This document shows, in pieces, positions 24,519 through 36,106 of a DNA stretch of 64,000 bases. The translations under genes and the position numbers were made by a program. The first letter of the stretch is position 1. Every line of letters begins with the position of its first letter. The notes below the pieces were generated by a model that had not been told where the DNA came from, ran no database searches, and saw nothing but the letters and a program-made list of their open reading frames with translations. This DNA comes from a bacterium (lineage in GTDB: Bacteria; UBA8248): assembly GCA_965200245.1 (NCBI GenBank), contig CBDATS010000005.1, forward strand, positions 128,001 through 192,000, read 5' to 3'.

Positions 24519-25683
24519 TCAGGTTTTTCGCACCACTTCCGTGAGCCTGCGCCGATCCGGTCCGGACGGCCTGAGCAACCTGCCTCCCAGCACCACGTGC
24601 GTTGCCTCCAGCATCCTCTGTCCCGTGCGCCGTTCTCACATGGCATCCTCGAAAGCAAACCGACCCTCACGCATCCGGAATACGGCGACATCGCCCCGCG
24701 CGCCTTTTCGGAGCGTCCCCACTTCGCCTTTCAAGCCAATCCATTCCGCCGCCGTCTGCGTGCTGAGCCGCACCACCTCTGCAAGGGGGAAGCCCAGGGC
24801 CAGGAACTTGCTCATAAGACTCGGGAAATCACACACAGGGCCATTGATGCAATGCGTATGGAGGTCTGTGCTGAGATTTCCCGGCATGAGGCCCTGTTCC
24901 ATGGCGCGTTCCATGATCTCGAAACTGAAGCTCGAACGCCCGTGGGCAACGTCGAGTAACACCCCTGAGTCTCTCGCCTCCTACACCGCGCGGCGCACCC
25001 GACCCCGTGCGTCGAGTATGTTTTCCCTGCGACCGTGAAACGCATGCGTCAGAACGTCGCCCGGGCGGAGGCGTTTGAGGATGCTGGGCAAAGAAGTGGG
25101 CGTATCACCCACATGGACCATGAGAGGGACTTTCAGGAATTCCGCCGCCTCGAGTGCCGCATCCAGCGGCTTCGATCCGCTGCGTTCCACCACGTTGTTG
25201 CTCAGGCGCACCTTCATGCCAATCAGGTATTTTCGATGCTTTTGGTAGCACTCCACTGCCCTGTCCACGCGCAGTGCGCGCATATCGATGTTCTCGCCAA
25301 GGCCGTCTATCAGGAGTCCGCCTTCCGAGATGTTGAGATACGCGCGCACCGTCGGACGCGCCTTCTCCAGGAACCACTCCTGAAAACCGGGATATGTCTG
25401 TGCGCCTGCGCTGCCCGTATCGACCGCAGTCGTGACGCCGCGCGACAGCATGGCGGCCTCGAGGTTCACCCCGTAGTGCGTAATGCCCTCGTAAAAATGG
25501 CAATGGAGGTCAACCAGGCCGGGTGTTACAACTTTTCCCCGTGCGTTGAGCGTCTGCCTGCCCCCCCGGTTCGATGTGGGGATCCACCCGCCGCACACGA
25601 CCCTGTGCTATCTCGACATCCATCGTCCCTTCCAGACCTTGGGAGGGATCGAGCACGTATCCACCGCGAATCACGAGGTCCAT
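24519..25683 (-). pseudogene. Amidohydrolase/deacetylase-family metallohydrolase (dihydroorotase-like), disrupted
   Basis: AGGAGG RBS, MDLVIRGG.VLDP, PGLVDLHCH, LMVHVG, LTHAFHG and STDLH. Frameshift at the G7 run (25561-25567), in-frame TAG at 24981-24983 and in-frame TGA at 24636-24638. Confidence 0.85.
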
Positions 25684-26106
25684 ACACTGGCCTCCTACAA
25701 TGAAACCGGGTGCGAACCTACAGGTTCAGCAAGAACCGGAGCAAAAAAAGTAGCTTCGGGGAATTATTCCCCCCAGAAGCGATGAGACGCAATCGGCCGT
25801 GGAACTGGCTTCGAAATGATTCAAATGCAAACATCATCCATTAGGAACGCACCAGCGCAGGCATCTGGAGCATCTCCCGGGAAAATCCATGCAAATCGAA
25901 ACGGGGAACTTGTCTGGCCGATACCCGTGGACAAGACAAACAAGATGGGCTGGAACGTCTCGAAAAAACGGAAAACATCGCAAATTCGAAGGGCGCCGCA
26001 GACAACGGGATGGCCCGTGGATTCGAGAGACACCGAAGCCGGACATCAAAAACCCGTATCGTGAGAAGGGTTGGCCGAGACCCTTGATCGCATCGCCACA
26101 CAGCGA

Positions 26107-26360
26107 AATCCGTACGAAATTCTGCACACGGAGAAGACAATACACGCTCCCACAAAACTGCCGACTCAAAAACCGAAGCGGCAGACAGGAACAGGATTGA
26201 CAGGTTGGCGAACCGCGATGCACAGGGAGAAACAAGGGTCTGCAATGTTACGAATAACGTGTTCAGAATACGCTGGGGCGATTACCGGGTTCTGTACGCT
26301 CTCTGCAACGGTTTCAGAATACCCATTCCCGACATCGAGAATAGAGGGGTGTCTATAGCC
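26107..26360 (+). pseudogene. RelE/StbE-type toxin relic
   Basis: 26262-26297 translates as FRIRWGDYRVLY, followed by ...DIENRG. The upstream part (PYEILHTEK) is in another frame and there is no valid start. Confidence 0.6.
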
Positions 26361-26655
26361 TATAGAAGAACAGACCCCTGAGAAGAATGTTCACCTCATC
26401 TTTCATCCACTTCTTGAAAATCTGCGTCCTATCCTCCAATATGCCATGAAAATCTTGCATCAATCTTTCTCCGAAGTGAAAGAGAAGGAAATGACCCGCG
26501 GAAATGGGTATTGCGGGTGGAATGCTTCCGTTCCGGGAAAACCGGTAACCCCGAAGAGGGCGGCTGATCAACATGTCCAAAACCGATTTTTCACATGGCT
26601 TTCCCAAGCCTGCCTGTCCAGTTCCCCTGCAAAATCAAACCACCGGAGTCAAGAA

Positions 26656-27828
26656 ATGAGCCTGCAAACAGAAACTCAACTGCAATTCGATCTCGACGAA
26701 ACGCAAAAGATGCTTCGCCAGACGGTGCGCGAACTCTCGGAGCGCTACATCGCCCCGCGCGCCGCCGACATCGACGAGTACGAGGAATACCCCGAGGACA
26801 TCTACCAACTCCAGAAAGAACACGGCCTGCTCGGCATCTTCTTCCCCGAGGAATACGGGGGTGGCGGCATGGGCTTTCTGGGTGGCTGCGTCGCCATTGA
26901 GGAAATCGCGCGCGTTTGCTCGAATTCGCCGCTGTTCATCGTGCTCAACATGCTCTCAAGCCGCGTCATCGATCTGAGCGGAACGCAGGAGCAGAAAGAC
27001 CACTACATGGCGGGCCTCGCGAAAGGAGAACTCAGAGGTTCCTACGCGCTCACCGAACCCCACGCGGGATCGGATGCGGGCAACATCCGCACGCGCGCCG
27101 TCAAGGAGGGCGACGAATGGGTCATCAACGGCACCAAGTGCTTCTGCACGGGACCCGACAAGGCGGATTTCATCACCGTCGCCGCCAAGACCGACGCCCA
27201 TGCGGGCACGCGCGGTATCACCTATTACATCGTGCCCACAGATTCGCCGGGCTTCAGCATCGCCAAGCACGAACGCAAGATGGGGATGCGGGGTATCGCG
27301 ACCTGCATGCTCAACCTCGACAACGTGGCCGTCCCGCTTGAGAACCAGGTGGGCGAATTGAACGGGGGCTTCAAGACCGCGATGATCGGCTTCAACCAGA
27401 TGCGGCCGGCCATCGGATCGCGCGCGGTAGGTCTGGCACAGGGTTGCCTCGACTACGCGTCCAACTACGCCAAGGAACGTGAGGCTTTCGGCAAGCCCAT
27501 CGCCCAGCATCAGGCCGTGCAGTTCATGCTTGCGGACATGTTCATGGACATCGAGGCAGCGAGGCTGCTCGTCTACCGCGCGGCTGCTCTTGTGGACGCG
27601 GGCCAAATCGGCAAGGAGAATGCCCGGTATTTCTCGACGGCCAAGACCTACGCGGCCGACATGGCGATGAAGTGCGCGATAGACAGCATCCAGGTTCTTG
27701 GCGGGGCAGGCTACATGAAGGATCACCCACTCGAGCGTTTCATGCGCGACGCCAAGCAGATCCAAATCGTCGAGGGAACGAGCCAGATTCAGCGGATGAT
27801 CATCGCCCGGAACCTGCTCGGCCTCTAG
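26656..27828 (+). CDS. Acyl-CoA dehydrogenase (paralogue 1)
   Basis: ALTEPHAGSD, INGTKCF, KMGMRG, REAFGKPI..HQAVQFMLADM and QIVEGTSQIQR (catalytic Glu kept). Confidence 0.95.
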   Translation: MSLQTETQLQFDLDETQKMLRQTVRELSERYIAPRAADIDEYEEYPEDIYQLQKEHGLLGIFFPEEYGGGGMGFLGGCVAIEEIARVCSNSPLFIVLNMLSSRVIDLSGTQEQKDHYMAGLAKGELRGSYALTEPHAGSDAGNIRTRAVKEGDEWVINGTKCFCTGPDKADFITVAAKTDAHAGTRGITYYIVPTDSPGFSIAKHERKMGMRGIATCMLNLDNVAVPLENQVGELNGGFKTAMIGFNQMRPAIGSRAVGLAQGCLDYASNYAKEREAFGKPIAQHQAVQFMLADMFMDIEAARLLVYRAAALVDAGQIGKENARYFSTAKTYAADMAMKCAIDSIQVLGGAGYMKDHPLERFMRDAKQIQIVEGTSQIQRMIIARNLLGL

Positions 27829-27840
27829 GAGCGGGCTGAG

Positions 27841-29007
27841 GTGAAGGGAAGCCAGAATCCTGCAGGCACGTTCGAACTCTCCCCGGCCCAGCGGATGCTG
27901 GCCGATACGATCTATGAATTGAGCCGCCGACACATCGCACCGCGTGCCGGTGAGACGGACGAGAACAACGAATACCCGGAAGACGTCTTCGCACTTCTCA
28001 AATCCCACGATCTGCTCGGCCTCTACATCCCGGAAACCTACGGCGGGGCGGGCCTGGGAATTCTGGAAACCTGCGTCGCCATCGAGCAGATGGCGCGTTT
28101 TTGCTCGAACTCCCCTCTTTTCTTCTCCGTCCACTTGCTCGCCACGCGGCCCGTCGCCATCGGCGGAAGCGAGGTGCAAATGCACACCTATCTCGGCGGT
28201 GTAGCCCGTGGCGAATTACGGCCCGCCTTTTCGCTCACCGAGCCGAACGCAGGTTCCGACGCTGCGAACATATCCACACGCGCCGAACGTGACGGGGATT
28301 CGTGGGTCATCAACGGCCAGAAATGCTATTGCACGGGGGCGAGCGTGGCGGACTTCATCACCGTAGCGGCGAAGACCGAACCCGACAAAGGGGCAAGGGG
28401 CATCTCCTTCTTCAACGTTCCCAAGGGCGGGTTTCGCGTGGGACGTCATGAGCGGAAGATGGGAATGCGGGGTATTCCGACGTGTGAGGTCTTTCTCCAA
28501 AACTCGCGCGTACCTCTTGAGAACATGATCGGTGAACGAGGCCAGGGTTTCAAGACCGCCATGCTCGGCTTCAACCAGGCGCGACCCGCCATAGGTGCGC
28601 GCGGAGTGGGTCTGGCACAGGGGTGTCTCGATTACGCCTCGAACTACGCGAAGGAGCGCGAGGCATTCGGCAAGTCCATCGCACAGCACCAGGCCGTGCA
28701 GTTCATGCTCGCCGACATGTTCATGGAAACCGAGGCGGCCCGTATGCTCGTTTACCGTGCCGCCGCCATGGTGGATAATGGGCGTTACCGGAAAGAAGAT
28801 GTGCATTTCATCTGCGCCGCGAAATGCTACGCCACCGATGTCGCCATGAAGGTCGCCGTGGATGGCGTTCAGGTGCTCGGCGGCGCGGGCTACATGAAGG
28901 ACCACCCGATCGAGCGGTTCATGAGAGACGCCAAGCAGTTGCAGATTATCGAGGGGACCAACCAGATTCAGCGCATGGTCATCGCTCAAAATTTACTGGA
29001 ATTATAG
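27841..29007 (+). CDS. Acyl-CoA dehydrogenase (paralogue 2)
   Basis: SLTEPNAGSD, INGQKCY, KMGMRG and QIIEGTNQIQR; closely similar to paralogue 1. Confidence 0.95.
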   Translation: MKGSQNPAGTFELSPAQRMLADTIYELSRRHIAPRAGETDENNEYPEDVFALLKSHDLLGLYIPETYGGAGLGILETCVAIEQMARFCSNSPLFFSVHLLATRPVAIGGSEVQMHTYLGGVARGELRPAFSLTEPNAGSDAANISTRAERDGDSWVINGQKCYCTGASVADFITVAAKTEPDKGARGISFFNVPKGGFRVGRHERKMGMRGIPTCEVFLQNSRVPLENMIGERGQGFKTAMLGFNQARPAIGARGVGLAQGCLDYASNYAKEREAFGKSIAQHQAVQFMLADMFMETEAARMLVYRAAAMVDNGRYRKEDVHFICAAKCYATDVAMKVAVDGVQVLGGAGYMKDHPIERFMRDAKQLQIIEGTNQIQRMVIAQNLLEL

Positions 29008-29034
29008 TTCAAGTCCCTCGTCACGGAGACCGAA

Positions 29035-29643
29035 ATGAGCCAGATGATTGAAATCCTGCAACCCACCTCCTTCATTCGCGCGGGCGATCACCCCCTGGCG
29101 GAGCGGCCCGAAGATCTGGGCGGACTTACAATCGGCTTCTTCCACAACAACAAGCCCAACGCCGACGTTCTACTCGAACGGATCGAGGAGCTTTTCGCAA
29201 AAGAAGACGAGACGCTGCGCTTCGTGCGCTGGGGAAAGCCAAACCCCACCCTGCCCGAAGATCGGATTGAGGAATTCATCGAACAGGTGGATGTGGCCGT
29301 CTGCGCGGTGGGTGACTGAGGGAGTTGTACGTCATGGAGTATCCATGACTCGGTGGAGATGGAAAAAGCAGGCATTCCGACGGCCACGTTTTGTTCCAGT
29401 GAATTCTCGGCCCTGGGGGCAAACGAGAGAACGGCCCTGGGGATGCCTGGCCTCCCGATAGTCGTCGTGATGCATCCGGTGGGAGGCATAGCACCGGGAG
29501 AGGCGCGCGCTTTGGGCGATGGTGCGGTGGAGGAGATTCGGCACATCCTCACGAGCGACGCCGAGACTCTCAGGAAAGAATACAGAGCGCGCGAATACGT
29601 CCCGCCCCGAAAGGCGGTGCGCCACAAGACCCTCTTCGGATAG
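29035..29643 (+). CDS. Predicted UGSC-family selenoprotein (202 aa; TGA 29317-29319 read as Sec)
   Basis: ORFs 29035..29319 and 29353..29643 are in frame and join as AVGD-U-GSCTSWSIHD. Family-like motifs NNKPNAD..L and EKAGIPT. SECIS-like hairpin follows the TGA. Confidence 0.88.
29331..29349 (+). promoter_or_regulatory. Bacterial SECIS-like hairpin
   Basis: GTCATGGA-GTA-TCCATGAC, a perfect 8-bp stem with G in the apical loop, starting 11 nt after the TGA. Confidence 0.75.
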
Positions 29644-29656
29644 GCGGGCTTCCGAT

Positions 29657-30736
29657 ATGAGCGACCATTCTCAGGAAAATCTTGCGTTCGGGAGCGAGCG
29701 GGTGAAGGTGCGCGACACGCCCGAGGCGATGGCGCGACTACTTGAGGCGAGAGGCTGGGGCGACGGCCTTCCCGCTGTTCCCCCCACGCCCGATCGCGTC
29801 GCCCGGATGGTGGAGGGCGCAGGCCTCGCGCCTGATGAAGAAATCGGGCTCATGCCCCCTCGCCAGGGCGTCATCACGGTGAAAGCCCTCGCCGTGAACG
29901 CCGTGATGGCAGGCTGTCTACCGGCATACATGCCCGTTCTGTTGGCGGCAGCCCGCGCGGTGCTCGAACCCGGGTTCTCGCTCCACGCCATTCAGGCGAC
30001 GACCCACCCCGTAGCACCCCTCATCATCGTGAACGGCCCCGTGGTCGAAGAAATCGGCCTGAACGCCGAATATGGATGCTTCGCCCCCGGCAACCGGGCG
30101 AACGCGACGATTGGCCGTGCGATGCGCCTGACGCTTCTGAACATCGGCGGTGCGAGCCCCGGCATCCTGGACCGCGCCACACAGGGGTCGCCCGCCAAAT
30201 ACGCATTCTGCATCGCCGAGAACGAGGCCGCCTCCCCTTGGGAACCCCTCCACGTCGAGCGCGGTTTTCCGCCAGAGGAGAGCACCGTGACGCTCGTGGG
30301 CTGCGAGGGACCTCACAACATCAACGATCACGTGAGCCACACGGCAGAGGGAATTCTCGCCACCGCTGCCGACACCATGTCCGTCATGGGGTGCAACAAT
30401 TTCTATCTTCGTGGCGAACCCGTTCTCGCCCTCGGACCCGAGCACGCAGCAACCATCGCAGGAGACGGCCTTGCGAAGGCGGACGTAAAGCGGAGAATCT
30501 TCCAGCTCGCCCGTAAGCCTGTGCGGCAACTGAAGCGTGGCGCCATGTGGGGAATGCAGACCTGGGATGAGAAAATAGCGAACAACGAGGGCGACGATGA
30601 TTTCGAGATTCCCCTTCTCGACAGGCCCGAGGACCTGCTCCTCATCATCGCGGGCGGCGCCGGCAAACACTCCTGCTGCATGCCCACTTTCGGACCAACG
30701 CGCTCGGTGACGCGAAAGATCGAAGTCGCAGGATGA
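29657..30736 (+). CDS. Hypothetical protein of the type found next to UGSC genes
   Basis: Motifs GWGDGLPAVPPT..RV..M, AVNAVMAGC.P.YMPV, PGNRANATIGRA and AENE..SPWEP; starts 13 nt after the selenoprotein stop. Confidence 0.8.
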   Translation: MSDHSQENLAFGSERVKVRDTPEAMARLLEARGWGDGLPAVPPTPDRVARMVEGAGLAPDEEIGLMPPRQGVITVKALAVNAVMAGCLPAYMPVLLAAARAVLEPGFSLHAIQATTHPVAPLIIVNGPVVEEIGLNAEYGCFAPGNRANATIGRAMRLTLLNIGGASPGILDRATQGSPAKYAFCIAENEAASPWEPLHVERGFPPEESTVTLVGCEGPHNINDHVSHTAEGILATAADTMSVMGCNNFYLRGEPVLALGPEHAATIAGDGLAKADVKRRIFQLARKPVRQLKRGAMWGMQTWDEKIANNEGDDDFEIPLLDRPEDLLLIIAGGAGKHSCCMPTFGPTRSVTRKIEVAG

Positions 30737-30739
30737 TGG

Positions 30740-31240
30740 TCATGTTTTCATCAACTGTATTCTTGAACCCGACCAGTCCGAGCGGTAGCCCGTTGACGAA
30801 CAAGACAATATCCGGAAGGCGTTTCTGTTTGTTATCGACGACGGTGAACTGATTGACCGCCAGCCAGTCGTTGTTTGCGGGGCCGTCGAAATCCACAGCG
30901 CAGGCCGACACGTCGCGGACCGCGTCGTTATCGTCACGGTGTTCAACCGTGATCCCATGATGAGCATCCGGTGGAACGAGCGGTTACGAACCTCCAGCGT
31001 CGTCCCTTCCGGGCGCGTCAATTGGCCGAACACATCCTGATGGGCGGAGGCGGCAGAACAGGATTGAGGTGGGCCATTTCATCGCAAGGCGTCCTTCAAG
31101 AATCACGTCGCTATAATCAGCACGCTCCGCGCGCAGCACATCGGGGCAACACCGACATCGTGGGTGATATTCCAGCCGAGGTTCTCAAGCCATTCGAGCA
31201 GGATGATTTCAACGTCGGATCCGGTTAAGCGGCGCGCCCT
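30740..31240 (-). pseudogene. hsdR: Type I restriction endonuclease HsdR, N-terminal relic
   Basis: Fragments in different frames: SDVEIILLEWLENLGW, LTRPEGTTLEVRNRSFHRML and VDFDGPANNDWLAVNQFTV...PDIVLFVNGLPL. The helicase part is absent. Confidence 0.85.
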
Positions 31241-31282
31241 TGGTCAACTCCGAGACAACGTTGGCGTCGCGGAAATATCCAC

Positions 31283-31567
31283 TCATTCGGACTCGTCGTC
31301 CGTGAACGGGATTTCCCTACCGGAACTTCTCGTACCCGGGCTCTCCAGATTCACCCCACGCGGCATGTTCTCGACCAGCCATCGTCCCATCGATTTACGG
31401 GGCGGTCTTTTCCAATACCACTCCCCGGCGGACACGACCACAAAAGGTCGCCTCATCCCGATATGTTGGGGCCCCTCCTCCTCTGCGAGGCGCAACACTG
31501 CGGACAGACGCGCCTTGGCCTCCGCAACGGTCCATACTCGATGGGGCCTAGAATGCCGTTCCGCCAT
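31283..31567 (-). CDS. Phd/YefM-family antitoxin (no toxin partner)
   Basis: WTVAEAKARLSAVLRLAEEEGPQHI...VVVS Phd signature. Confidence 0.8.
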   Translation of the reverse strand: MAERHSRPHRVWTVAEAKARLSAVLRLAEEEGPQHIGMRRPFVVVSAGEWYWKRPPRKSMGRWLVENMPRGVNLESPGTRSSGREIPFTDDESE

Positions 31568-31668
31568 AATCCCCTCAAGCAAAGTAATATAGTCCCGTAC
31601 AGGCTATACTTAGATCGACGTCAAGACGTGAACGTACCGAACGTGACGCGTCGGTCGGAAATTGTGCC

Positions 31669-31704
31669 TCAAGTGATGTTTGCGTCGAGAAGATAACCGG
31701 TCAT
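31669..31704 (-). pseudogene. DUF4411/PIN-like nuclease stub (MTGYLLDANIT*)
   Basis: Its ATG overlaps the ImmA/IrrE stop (ATGA). YLLDAN is the typical first strand of PIN-fold proteins. Ends after 11 codons. Confidence 0.6.
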
Positions 31705-32852
31705 TTCACCACCTCGACTTCACGCCCAAGATTGTTAAAGGTTTCGGTCCTGGAAACTCCAAGCATCCGAAAGGCGTCTCGATAGAGCGTTTGTCCTTCG
31801 AGCGTACTCACTACAAGCGCGCGGGCGAACCGCCGCCCGACCCGTGCGACCGTCGTGCGATAGAAGTCGCCACCGCTGTCCGCTCGGACGAGTTTCCGCA
31901 GACGTTCGTTCTCTTGCGTCCAGGCGGTATCGAAGCGCTCGCGAGTTAGCCAGCCTGCGTCAAGCAGTCGTCGCAGAATGACCAGCGTGCTGACCTTGAA
32001 AGTCCGCGCCAAGCGGAACAGGAAGTTGTGGGGCGGCTCGTCGTCGCGAAGCCTGGCGCGAATATCTGCAAGCGGTACGAGAAACTCTGCCGCCACCGCG
32101 TTGCACCACACCTCCTCGCGGCAGAATCCCGTATTCAGTACGGCCCCAAGATTCGACAAGGCAGAGGCACCGAGCCAGATATGCGCAAGTTCGTGTGCGA
32201 GCGTGAACATCTGCGCCGCCTTCGTGTCCTTGCCGTTGACGAAGATCAGCGGCGCAAGCGGATCGCACAGCGCGAAACCGCGAAACTCGGCGGGATCGAG
32301 ACGCCGGCGGTTGTTGCTCATCACGATACCGCTCACCATGACGAGCACACCGGCCTCGTTGGCCTGGCGGATGAACAAACGCAAAGCGTCGTTCCAGTTC
32401 GGACACTTACGGCGGGCGTCAAGACTGAAACCTAGGGTCTCTCGTATCTGGGTCGCGACAGTTTCAGGGAACGTCCGGATAGAGGCACTACCGACGAAGC
32501 TGCGTTCCGGCTCGCCGGCGACGCGGGCGAAATCCCGATACCAGCCCTGCCGTTCCCGGCAGGCGTAAATCGTGTCCAGCATATTCGGGCTGGGTCGTGT
32601 GACCGCATGACCGGCAAAGGTTCGGAAATCCGGAATGGGCACGGATTCCTCCGGCGGCTCCGAGAGGAACAGACAACCGACCGGCGCATGGACGGCACGT
32701 GCAAACGCCTCCACCTGCCTCAGGGTGGGCTGCTCCTGGCCGGCCTCCCACACAGGCAGCTTTTTGAATTTCACCGCCAGATCTCTCTGTGCAACCCCGG
32801 CGCGCTCGCGCGCCCAGCCGAGGAGTTCGGGATTGACGGGGATTCGGATCAT
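31701..32852 (-). CDS. XRE-HTH + ImmA/IrrE-family zinc metallopeptidase
   Basis: N-terminal HTH (LGWARERAG...WEAG..QPTLRQ), EFRGFAL, FTLAHELAHIW (HExxH) and EVWCNAVAAEFL. Confidence 0.9.
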   Translation of the reverse strand: MIRIPVNPELLGWARERAGVAQRDLAVKFKKLPVWEAGQEQPTLRQVEAFARAVHAPVGCLFLSEPPEESVPIPDFRTFAGHAVTRPSPNMLDTIYACRERQGWYRDFARVAGEPERSFVGSASIRTFPETVATQIRETLGFSLDARRKCPNWNDALRLFIRQANEAGVLVMVSGIVMSNNRRRLDPAEFRGFALCDPLAPLIFVNGKDTKAAQMFTLAHELAHIWLGASALSNLGAVLNTGFCREEVWCNAVAAEFLVPLADIRARLRDDEPPHNFLFRLARTFKVSTLVILRRLLDAGWLTRERFDTAWTQENERLRKLVRADSGGDFYRTTVARVGRRFARALVVSTLEGQTLYRDAFRMLGVSRTETFNNLGREVEVVK

Positions 32853-33065
32853 GGGCGCTCTCCCGCCAGACTCGCCAACGCAGCCTTCAGGACTGGAAGC
32901 AGACCTTGGCGGTGTGTTCATCCGGTGTGAAGCCTGAGGCCATTTGCTGGTATGGGTGGGTGTAGTTTCGGAAATCGCGCAAGCCGTGACTGAACTTCTT
33001 GATGCCAAGTTCCCCAACGCCGATCTTGCACGCATAGTCAATCAACTACGCAAGTCTCCATTCGT
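32853..33065 (-). pseudogene. C-terminal relic of a HEPN-like protein
   Basis: Translates as ...LIDYACKIG...KKFSHGLRDFRNYTHPYQQMASGFTPDEHTAKVCFQ (RxxxH-type motif), with stops, a frameshift and no N-terminus. Confidence 0.5.
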
Positions 33066-34924: not shown

Positions 34925-36106
34925 ATGATCGAGCGGAAGATTACCCCTTGTCTGGTGGAATTGTTTCAACAATATCCGTTCGTCACGGTGACCGGACCGA
35001 GACAGTCCGGCAAAACCACCCTTTGTCGCGCGGCCTTTCCGAATCTGGAATACGTCAACCTCGAGGCACCGGATCAGCGGGAATTCGCAGAAACCGACCC
35101 CCGGGGCTTCCTTTCCCGCCTGGGCGACGGCGCCGTCCTGGACGAGATCCAGCGCGTCCCTGAACTCCTGTCCTATCTTCAGGTCATGGCGGACGAAGTG
35201 GGACAAAACGGCCTCTTCGTGCTGACGGGCAGCGAGCAGTTCCGGCTTTCCGATGCTATCAGCCAGTCACTTGCCGGTCGCACGGCGCTACTGCGCCTGT
35301 TACCGTTTTCACTCGCCGAAAGGCGACAGGCGGGCGCGAGCGAAGGGGTCGACAACATTCTCTACTCCGGCTTCTATCCCCGGATTCACGACCAAGGGCT
35401 CGAACCCCGACAAGCGCTCGGCGACTATTTCGAAACCTATGTGGAACGCGATGTGCGCCGGATCGGGGAAATCCGCAATCTCTCCAGTTTCCGTCGATTC
35501 GTCCGTCTGTGCGCCGGCCGTGTGGGACAACTGATCAATCTATCGGCCCTGGGTGCGGATGCCGGCGTTTCCCACACCACGGTACGCCACTGGTTGACAA
35601 TTCTTGAAGCCAGCTACATCGTTTTCCAGCTTCCGCCGTTTTTCGCGAATGTCCGCAAGCGGCTGGTCAAGTCGCCCAAGCTTTACTTCCACGATGTCGG
35701 GCTGGCAAGTCATCTCATCGGCATCGAGCATGCCGGGCAGTTGGGCACCCATCCGCTCCGGGGAGCGCTGTTCGAGAACGCCGTCGTCGCAGAGGTCCTC
35801 AAGCACCGTTTCAACCAGGGGCGCCGTCCCAACCTGTCCTTCTTCCGCGACGTCAGGGGACTCGAGTGCGACCTTCTCTACGAAAACGGCGACGGGGTGG
35901 GCGTCATCGAAGTCAAGTCCGGCGCGACGGTCGCATCCGACTGGTTCGATGCCTTTCACCGGGTGGCGAAGACATTGCCCCAAATCATCCTCAGAGCGGT
36001 CGTCTACGGCGGTTCGGATCGGCAGTCCCGCCGGGATGGTGAGGTGATTCCCCTGGTCGCGCTGGGCGAAGTGCTCGATCAATTCGACGGGCGCAAACCA
36101 ACCTGA
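34925..36106 (+). CDS. AAA+ ATPase (AAA_14 + DUF4143)
   Basis: GPRQSGKTT, LDEIQRVP, LTGS, SLAGR, KSPKLYFHDVG and a nuclease-like tail ECDLL...IEVKS. Confidence 0.92.
   Translation: MIERKITPCLVELFQQYPFVTVTGPRQSGKTTLCRAAFPNLEYVNLEAPDQREFAETDPRGFLSRLGDGAVLDEIQRVPELLSYLQVMADEVGQNGLFVLTGSEQFRLSDAISQSLAGRTALLRLLPFSLAERRQAGASEGVDNILYSGFYPRIHDQGLEPRQALGDYFETYVERDVRRIGEIRNLSSFRRFVRLCAGRVGQLINLSALGADAGVSHTTVRHWLTILEASYIVFQLPPFFANVRKRLVKSPKLYFHDVGLASHLIGIEHAGQLGTHPLRGALFENAVVAEVLKHRFNQGRRPNLSFFRDVRGLECDLLYENGDGVGVIEVKSGATVASDWFDAFHRVAKTLPQIILRAVVYGGSDRQSRRDGEVIPLVALGEVLDQFDGRKPT

Follow-up and report, generated by a model that had tools for sequence, protein, structure and literature searches.

Standard translation (table 11) of the 64,000-nucleotide (nt) window analysed here, which comprises positions 128,001 to 192,000 of contig CBDATS010000005.1 (assembly GCA_965200245.1) from a bacterium of the lineage UBA8248, yields two neighbouring open reading frames (ORFs), one at 29035-29319 (94 amino acids, aa) and one at 29353-29643 (96 aa), the second of which starts with GTG. 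The locus raises the question of whether these ORFs are separate entities or the two parts of one selenoprotein gene in which a UGA codon is decoded as selenocysteine (Sec), and what function such a protein might have. An earlier reading of the nucleotide sequence (hereafter, the original prediction) had claimed that the two ORFs belong to a single frame, and this was borne out: with the TGA at 29317-29319 read as U, the window can be read directly from an ATG (29035-29037) to a TAG (29641-29643) as one frame of 202 residues, ...VCAVGD-U-GSCTSWSIHDSVEMEKAGIPT..., which contains the motif VGD-U-GSC. Judging from sequence comparisons, the gene almost certainly encodes a genuine, Sec-decoded protein of the UGSC family.

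The read-through protein scored above the cut-offs of two family models, NF041046 ('UGSC family (seleno)protein'; 136.5 bits, cut-off 125) and Pfam PF24696 (159.4 bits, cut-off 25), in agreement with the original prediction, in which U-G-S-C had been recognized as the mark of a described selenoprotein family. The same prediction implied that selA, selB, selC and selD are present elsewhere in the genome. All four were found above cut-offs when the host genome (3.68 Mb in 15 contigs) was searched: selA with 572.7 bits, selB with 391.9 bits, selD with 338.6 bits, and tRNA-Sec (anticodon TCA) with 75.9 bits. The selA and selB genes lie on one strand with a gap of about 0.9 kb between them, and because both frames are free of internal stops, TGA does not serve as a sense codon in general here. 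The selD gene (L010, C8:72779-73741) contains one in-frame TGA, and selenophosphate synthetase SelD is itself probably likewise a selenoprotein.

Seven matches to PF24696 are present in the host genome, each with exactly one in-frame TGA. In the seven host paralogues this TGA falls into one aligned column, although their identity to the window copy amounts to only 31-34%. Outside the host, the orthologue L089 is 89% identical to the window protein and has an identical start, and the window protein shares with L047, L093 and L094 a tail of about 30 residues at its C-terminus. UGSC genes were found in all 22 genomes of the same genus (3-9 copies each), in all 41 genomes of the same family (2-9 copies each) and in 43 of the 51 genomes sampled from the phylum. 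Each of the 150 matches listed in the genus search and in the family search had one TGA (34 and 89 further rows, respectively, stand outside these 150).

A pattern scan with one genome per species gave at least 113 stretches, of which 80 loci were returned, and in all 80 of these external loci tblastn confirmed a UGSC gene with TGA at the Sec column. Since TGA was required by the pattern, the scan informs on the spread of the gene and not on the ratio of Sec to Cys forms. The record labels of the 80 loci include Betaproteobacteria/Burkholderiales, Alphaproteobacteria, Dehalococcoidia, Acidobacteriota, Binatia and Nitrospinota, and further Streptomycetaceae, Acidimicrobiaceae and Actinophytocola (all actinobacterial) as well as relatives of Bacillus. 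Two of the records, L051 (Robertmurraya sp.) and L105 (Bacillus dakarensis strain Marseille-P3515T), do not bear the label of a metagenome-assembled genome and may stem from cultured isolates.

Cys forms were surveyed in the protein library: of the 150 best matches to the family encoded by the downstream gene (the partner family, see below), 21 bear a UGSC domain. In the fused relatives that could be aligned at the Sec column (n = 17), the residue was Cys in 13, Ile in two and Ser in two. The expectation that homologues should have Cys or Sec at this position, which had been put forward as a check of the original prediction, is in line with these 13 Cys forms and with the TGA in seven of seven paralogues. 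A further 35 library relatives start just past the Sec position, as is typical of gene calls that were truncated at the TGA. Conservation of the UGSC protein is strongest in the residues just after the TGA, ahead of the GTG of the second ORF: in alignment A4 (56 sequences), no variation was seen at G96 or S97, and conservation reaches at least 90% at C98, T99, S100 and H104. The Sec column of U (or C)-G-S-C is invariant in alignments A1 and A4. Termination at the TGA is irreconcilable with this pattern, because the best-conserved residues of the UGSC protein come after that codon. The features by which a bacterial selenoprotein is recognized were found together, namely selA, selB, selC and selD, homologues with Cys or TGA at the Sec column, and a fitting selenocysteine insertion sequence (SECIS).

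This SECIS hairpin consists of the arms GTCATGGA (29331-29338) and TCCATGAC (29342-29349), which form a perfect stem of 8 bp, and of the loop GTA (29339-29341), and it is separated from the TGA by a spacer of 11 nt (29320-29330). The perfect hairpin 11 nt after the TGA, as originally described, was upheld by its coordinates, by covariation and by synonymous-codon bias. Folded alone, it had an energy of -11.1 kcal/mol (z -4.21), and none of 200 shuffles was as stable. For comparison among homologues, the helix columns were numbered from the U of UGA (15-22 with 26-33). The hairpin was in register in the seven host paralogues, with 94.6% of 56 cells paired and three pairs changed on both sides. 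In 80 sequences, 93.4% of 640 cells were paired, and 0 of 500 shuffles equalled either the pairing or the covariation; shifted registers of the helix gave 16-55% pairing only. Pair 21-27 was GC in 49 and CG in 31 of the 80 sequences and in none of them unpaired, and pair 18-30 was GC in 57, GU in 20 and AU in three.

As the helix overlaps conserved coding sequence, synonymous sites were analysed in 81 external genes, in which the search pattern had left the tested positions free. In the 5' arm, Ser was encoded by TCG in 74 of 76 cases, whereas TCG made up 28.9% of the 668 Ser codons in the remainder of these genes; at the loop it was encoded by AGT in 48 of 48 cases, compared to 7.6% elsewhere. 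Position 24, the third letter of the loop codon, was T in 81 of 81 genes, irrespective of whether the residue was Ser, Cys, Gly or Leu. The Thr codon that precedes the loop codon was ACG in 66 of 81 genes, compared to 37.5% of 718 Thr codons elsewhere. This synonymous-codon bias in the hairpin is the result of selection on the RNA.

Two SECIS subclasses were distinguished in alignment A5, one with TGG-AGT and a 3-nt loop and one with TGC-TGT, a 7-bp stem and a 5-nt loop (UGUAY); pair 21-27 distinguishes the two, with G and C exchanged in a compensatory manner. A bacterial SECIS model published in PMC13188914 (Figure 2) has a loop of 3-9 nt, an upper stem of 4-16 bp, a distance from UGA to loop of 16-37 nt and an energy of at most -7.5 kcal/mol. 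The window element lies within all four ranges (3 nt, 8 bp, 19 nt and -11.1 kcal/mol). With the bSECISearch consensus it has in common a G followed by a U at the start of the loop, in addition to the ranges for stem, loop, spacing and energy. For the minimal SECIS of Escherichia coli fdhF the original prediction gives a spacer of 11 nt, equal to that in the window; a review searched for this value (PMC10778597) does not state it. The fdhF element has a bulged U in the stem, whereas the stem in the window is perfect and without a bulged U.

The UGSC gene is followed by a gene whose product, referred to here as the partner, belongs to an uncharacterised family. In the host genome tblastn detected 13 partner copies, compared to seven UGSC genes. 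Six of the seven UGSC genes adjoin a partner copy, with an in-frame fusion in one of the six, and the seventh is located about 2.6 kb from four tandem partner copies, all on one strand (C4:1230160-1234618). Because 13 partner copies stand against seven UGSC copies, one UGSC protein may serve several partners. The paralogue L030 (C4:1246527-1248131), in which the motif is U-G-G-C, is fused in frame to a partner domain and has a second partner copy directly downstream. In 81 external UGSC matches, the partner was fused in 25, downstream in 19 and upstream in 28, on the same strand throughout (72 of 81); the other nine lie within 796 nt of the end of their locus and hence are not judgeable. Fusions occur in both orders, the reverse order being found in P0004 and P0010. 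A fusion of UGSC to a conserved domain termed 'Unknown_1' is reported in PMC2398784, and this domain probably corresponds to the partner family.

With a threshold of E ≤ 0.001, a profile built from 69 partner sequences matched 8258 representative clusters, and at the stricter E ≤ 1e-30 it still matched 2679; clusters retrieved with the partner in an Atlas search were unnamed or arbitrarily named. The window partner had no match in Pfam up to an E value of 10, none in NCBIfam, and no sequence or profile match in the PDB. Its AlphaFold 2 model has a predicted local distance difference test score (pLDDT) of 92.7 and a predicted template modelling score (pTM) of 0.92. Comparison of this fold with the PDB by Foldseek gave 0 matches at E ≤ 0.001, the best being a class I fumarate hydratase (E 2.8e-3; template modelling score, TM, 0.22), and VIA-align gave a best Z of 5.2 for a subdomain of 82-89 residues, by which a new fold is not established. 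Among the conserved partner positions are D36, C87 and T115 (at least 90% for each of the latter two), T116, N149, R154, E188 and a G-G-x-G stretch close to the C-terminus.

Fusions of the partner domain to other redox domains were surveyed in nine of the 150 best partner relatives, which were chosen for unusual length. P0038 consists of a partner domain and a C-terminal Pyr_redox_2 domain with a CAVC motif, and P0107 of a partner domain and an N-terminal ferredoxin:thioredoxin reductase catalytic domain (FeThRed_B). The occurrence of three disulfide/selenosulfide redox modules on one domain argues that the partner consumes reducing equivalents via thiol chemistry. As to the domain architecture of other relatives, some (P0002, P0007, P0009, P0052, P0055 and P0065; 709-741 aa) have two partner stretches per chain, indicating tandem duplication, and P0051 begins with about 190 unrelated residues that match no Pfam family.

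The predicted model of the UGSC protein (pLDDT 90.0) comprises five strands, each followed by a helix (DSSP), and places Sec95 between strand 3 (87-91) and helix 3 (96-111), at the N-terminus of the helix. The best structural matches were flavodoxin-like (TM 0.42-0.47) and Rossmann-like (Z 9-11.2), and no thioredoxin was among the matches listed; sequence and profile searches against the PDB returned nothing meaningful (best E 0.35 and 0.049). The model suggests a Rossmann/flavodoxin-like fold and does not support the thioredoxin-like fold that has been suggested in the literature. Accordingly, the term 'thioredoxin-like' used in the original prediction is appropriate for the UxxC motif but not for the predicted fold. 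The UGSC model shares with UxxC/CxxC oxidoreductases of the thioredoxin fold a motif of two chalcogens, two positions apart, at the N-terminus of a helix, but its predicted topology differs from that fold in being a five-stranded alternating beta/alpha sandwich.

The host genome also contains four genes of the GRDB family (PF07355; L152 to L155), each of which ends at a TGA beyond which the frame continues with U-x-x-C or U-x-x-T. All four probably encode further selenoproteins, of which three are short (266-306 aa). In hhalign, UGSC was aligned with a GRDB profile over 60 columns, U on U, with a probability of 80.6% and an E value of 1.3e-5, and the alignment continues through LE-x-x-G-I-P-T and H-P-(F/L)-G. 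A match of UGSC to TIGR01917 (E 0.0027; 16.7 bits) was below threshold (cut-off 602.2), and PF07355 was absent from the Pfam matches of the window UGSC protein. We consider the similarity between UGSC and GRDB as a lead to a possible distant homology of the Sec sites, and not as family membership. GrdB and PrdB, both tabulated with a UxxC motif in PMC9312934, share with UGSC a UxxC Sec site that follows a beta-strand at the start of a helix, similar motifs thereafter, and presumably the involvement of a second protein. In contrast, the N-terminal part of GrdB (about 330 residues) is missing from UGSC, and the partner shows no similarity to the pyruvoyl-bearing proproteins GrdE/PrdA, as no Pfam family was found at E values up to 10; nor is the partner related to the GRDB profile (probability 0.07%).

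On this basis we propose a mechanism in which SelB and tRNA-Sec would decode the UGA at 29317-29319 as Sec, guided by the hairpin 11 nt downstream. The selenol-thiol pair of Sec95 and Cys98 would then form the two-electron redox centre of a two-part enzyme. The 359-aa partner would be the other part of that enzyme, presumably the catalytic or substrate-binding subunit, and its substrate would probably be an organic acid or a coenzyme A (CoA)-linked metabolite. The pair would reduce the substrate and thereby close to a selenenylsulfide, which a thioredoxin-reductase-type system would re-reduce. Within this scheme, Sec might either attack the substrate directly, as has been proposed for GrdB/PrdB, or act via Cys87 of the partner. 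From the gene arrangements and motifs, a role of UGSC as redox subunit of the partner appears fairly probable, and the explanation as a whole, namely a two-part reductase in which Sec-decoded UGSC serves as the subunit with the selenol-thiol redox pair, is one we favour with reasonable confidence.

Several observations weigh against this explanation. Regarding the SECIS element, the full 64-nt stretch that follows the TGA folded no better than shuffles (z -1.32; 21 of 200 as stable), and an Rfam search gave no SECIS match, with one chance-level row in 28500-30500. Regarding the redox centre, the second Cys is replaced by Ser in the paralogue L029 (C4:1133723-1134301; H-U-G-S-S), and in some fused relatives the Sec column is occupied by Ile or Ser; owing to these exceptions a selenium-sulfur cycle cannot be universal in the family. 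On the side of the partner, Cys87 is replaced by Ala in the fused copies L043 and L044 (labelled Acidobacteriota and Acidiferrales), and comparisons with Pfam, NCBIfam and the PDB revealed no recognisable fold or family. The fusions to thioredoxin reductase (TrxR)-like and ferredoxin:thioredoxin reductase (FTR)-like domains are single representatives among the nine relatives chosen, and the link to GRDB consists of 60 columns at 80.6% with a profile made from four host-genome sequences only. Finally, the families of neighbouring genes (see below) vary, and the count of TctC genes among them may mirror the many Burkholderiales-labelled loci.

Other explanations of the locus were considered. The ORFs of 94 and 96 aa obtained with table 11 are what would be expected if the TGA were a true stop, leaving a pseudogene or two separate small ORFs. 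With the TGA column kept in seven diverged paralogues and in all listed homologues, the strongest conservation directly after the TGA and ahead of the second GTG, and a SECIS as well as the full Sec machinery present, this reading is hardly credible. UGSC might also be a free-standing thiol-disulfide oxidoreductase of general function and of the thioredoxin type and the downstream gene an unrelated neighbour. The UxxC motif at a helix N-terminus, the thioredoxin type suggested in the literature, and one Atlas cluster near the partner with the automatic name 'Thioredoxin family protein' are compatible with such a role. We regard it as improbable in view of the model, whose five strand-helix units gave flavodoxin- and Rossmann-like matches and no thioredoxin among those listed, and of the partner, which is fused or adjacent on the same strand in 72 of 81 matches with the other nine at locus ends.

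A variant that does not exclude the two-part reductase is a reaction of the GrdB/PrdB kind, in which Sec would act as a nucleophile, a covalent selenoether would be formed with the substrate bound to the partner, and a bond would be cleaved reductively instead of electrons simply being relayed, with the partner in the role of GrdE/PrdA. It is consistent with the alignment of Sec on Sec together with the motifs that follow, with the weak match to TIGR01917 and with the UxxC motif listed for GrdB and PrdB in PMC9312934. Moreover, UGSC still has U..C where the partner copies lack Cys87. The homology, however, spans 60 columns only, and the partner resembles neither the GRDB profile (0.07%) nor any Pfam family at E values up to 10, GrdE/PrdA included, so that we rate this variant as rather unlikely, albeit clearly less so than a free-standing oxidoreductase.

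The features of the locus and the GRDB genes of the host are compiled in Table 1. Two genes of the acyl-CoA dehydrogenase family precede the UGSC gene. For the proximal one the best NCBIfam rows were all below their cut-offs, and it is probably part of the UGSC operon; the true start of the distal one is probably located further downstream. Both genes precede UGSC in L089 too, with gene order kept. Other UGSC copies of the host adjoin genes for CoA-transferase III and enoyl-CoA hydratase. Over 87 loci, the neighbours comprised TctC (18), CoA-transferase III (10), acyl-CoA dehydrogenase (7), MmgE/PrpD (7) and short-chain dehydrogenase (6), a context that points loosely to organic-acid or CoA-ester metabolism. 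A scan of 25500-31800 for promoters and terminators gave two of each, which is no more than in shuffles. Past the operon lie a gene with an IrrE/Peptidase_M78 domain (31701-33041, minus strand) and an AAA_14/DUF4143 ATPase gene (34925-36106, plus strand), which suggests a mobile or defence-type insertion.

Table 1. Coordinates of features in the window and of GRDB genes elsewhere in the host genome.
Feature	Position	Strand	Remarks
Second acyl-CoA dehydrogenase family gene	26446-27828	+	Pfam domains from residue 85 of the 460-aa ORF
Acyl-CoA dehydrogenase family gene	27841-29007	+	Pfam Acyl-CoA_dh_N/M/1; ends 27 nt before UGSC start
GGAG, likely ribosome-binding site	29025-29028	+	6 nt 5' of ATG; inferred from the letters
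UGSC-family selenoprotein gene	29035-29643	+	202 codons and TAG stop; Sec at codon 95
UGA as selenocysteine (U95)	29317-29319	+	TGA column shared with homologues
Cys98 codon	29326-29328	+	C of U-G-S-C; presumed resolving thiol
SECIS hairpin	29331-29349	+	8-bp stem and GUA loop; 11 nt 3' of UGA
Partner gene (uncharacterised family)	29657-30736	+	359-aa ORF at 29657-30733; start 14 nt after UGSC stop
GRDB gene L152	C5:577336-578649		motif T-U-GTGT
GRDB gene L153	C8:244897-245787		motif V-U-PLC
GRDB gene L154	C4:784647-785564		motif V-U-PLC
GRDB gene L155	C4:1532073-1532870		motif A-U-GLC

Near-identical DNA was present in sequencing runs of three studies; some runs are labelled sponge metagenome, and the DNA analysed here may itself come from one of these studies. 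A contig of 20,907 nt from another study covers 27800-30800 with zero differences. Of the contigs from RNA libraries, one of 357 nt covers 29151-29507 with the TGA unchanged, and two span the region from the UGSC stop to the start of the partner gene; transcription is not thereby proven, and stretches that no such contig covers are uninformative.

The UGSC family has been known since 2007-2008 as the 'UGSC-containing protein' of Zhang and Gladyshev (PMC2398784, PMC1976440), and Hyphomonas neptunium is listed among its carriers in PMC1976440. With that family the window gene shares the U-G-S-C motif, a length of about 180-200 aa and the existence of Cys relatives; it is not itself different, and is a further member of this described family, whose genes are cut in two at the UGA by gene callers. 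In aquatic metagenomes the family is one of the most abundant of all selenoprotein families, with 255 Sec forms versus 21 Cys forms in the GOS table of PMC2398784. Its function is given as unknown in PMC2398784, PMC1976440 and PMC13188914, the last of which is a review of 2026 that calls the family uncharacterised. As far as these texts extend, the literature on the family contains bioinformatic description only and no function. Pairing statistics, alternative redox fusions, a fold assignment and an alignment with the GRDB Sec site were not found in the passages of the UGSC-family literature that were consulted, supplements excluded.

The present analysis adds to this description (i) the near-obligate pairing and frequent fusion of UGSC with a large unnamed family; (ii) the fusions of that partner family to disulfide-reductase modules; (iii) the predicted fold, which is Rossmann-like and not thioredoxin-like; and (iv) the link of the Sec site to GrdB/PrdB. 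In its widest form, which we put forward tentatively and consider possible rather than probable, the picture would be that of a widespread and undescribed two-component, often fused, selenoenzyme. Its partner subunit would be a reductase without a detectable relative in the PDB, combined with an interchangeable redox module: UGSC in its Sec or Cys form, distantly connected to the GrdB/PrdB Sec site, or a TrxR-like or an FTR-like module. In aerobic soil, freshwater and sponge-associated bacteria, such an enzyme might act in the breakdown of organic acids or CoA esters, and in the lineage of the host it would have expanded to seven UGSC and 13 partner copies per genome. Taken together, the four additions turn the 'unknown function' of the UGSC family into a testable two-subunit reductase hypothesis.

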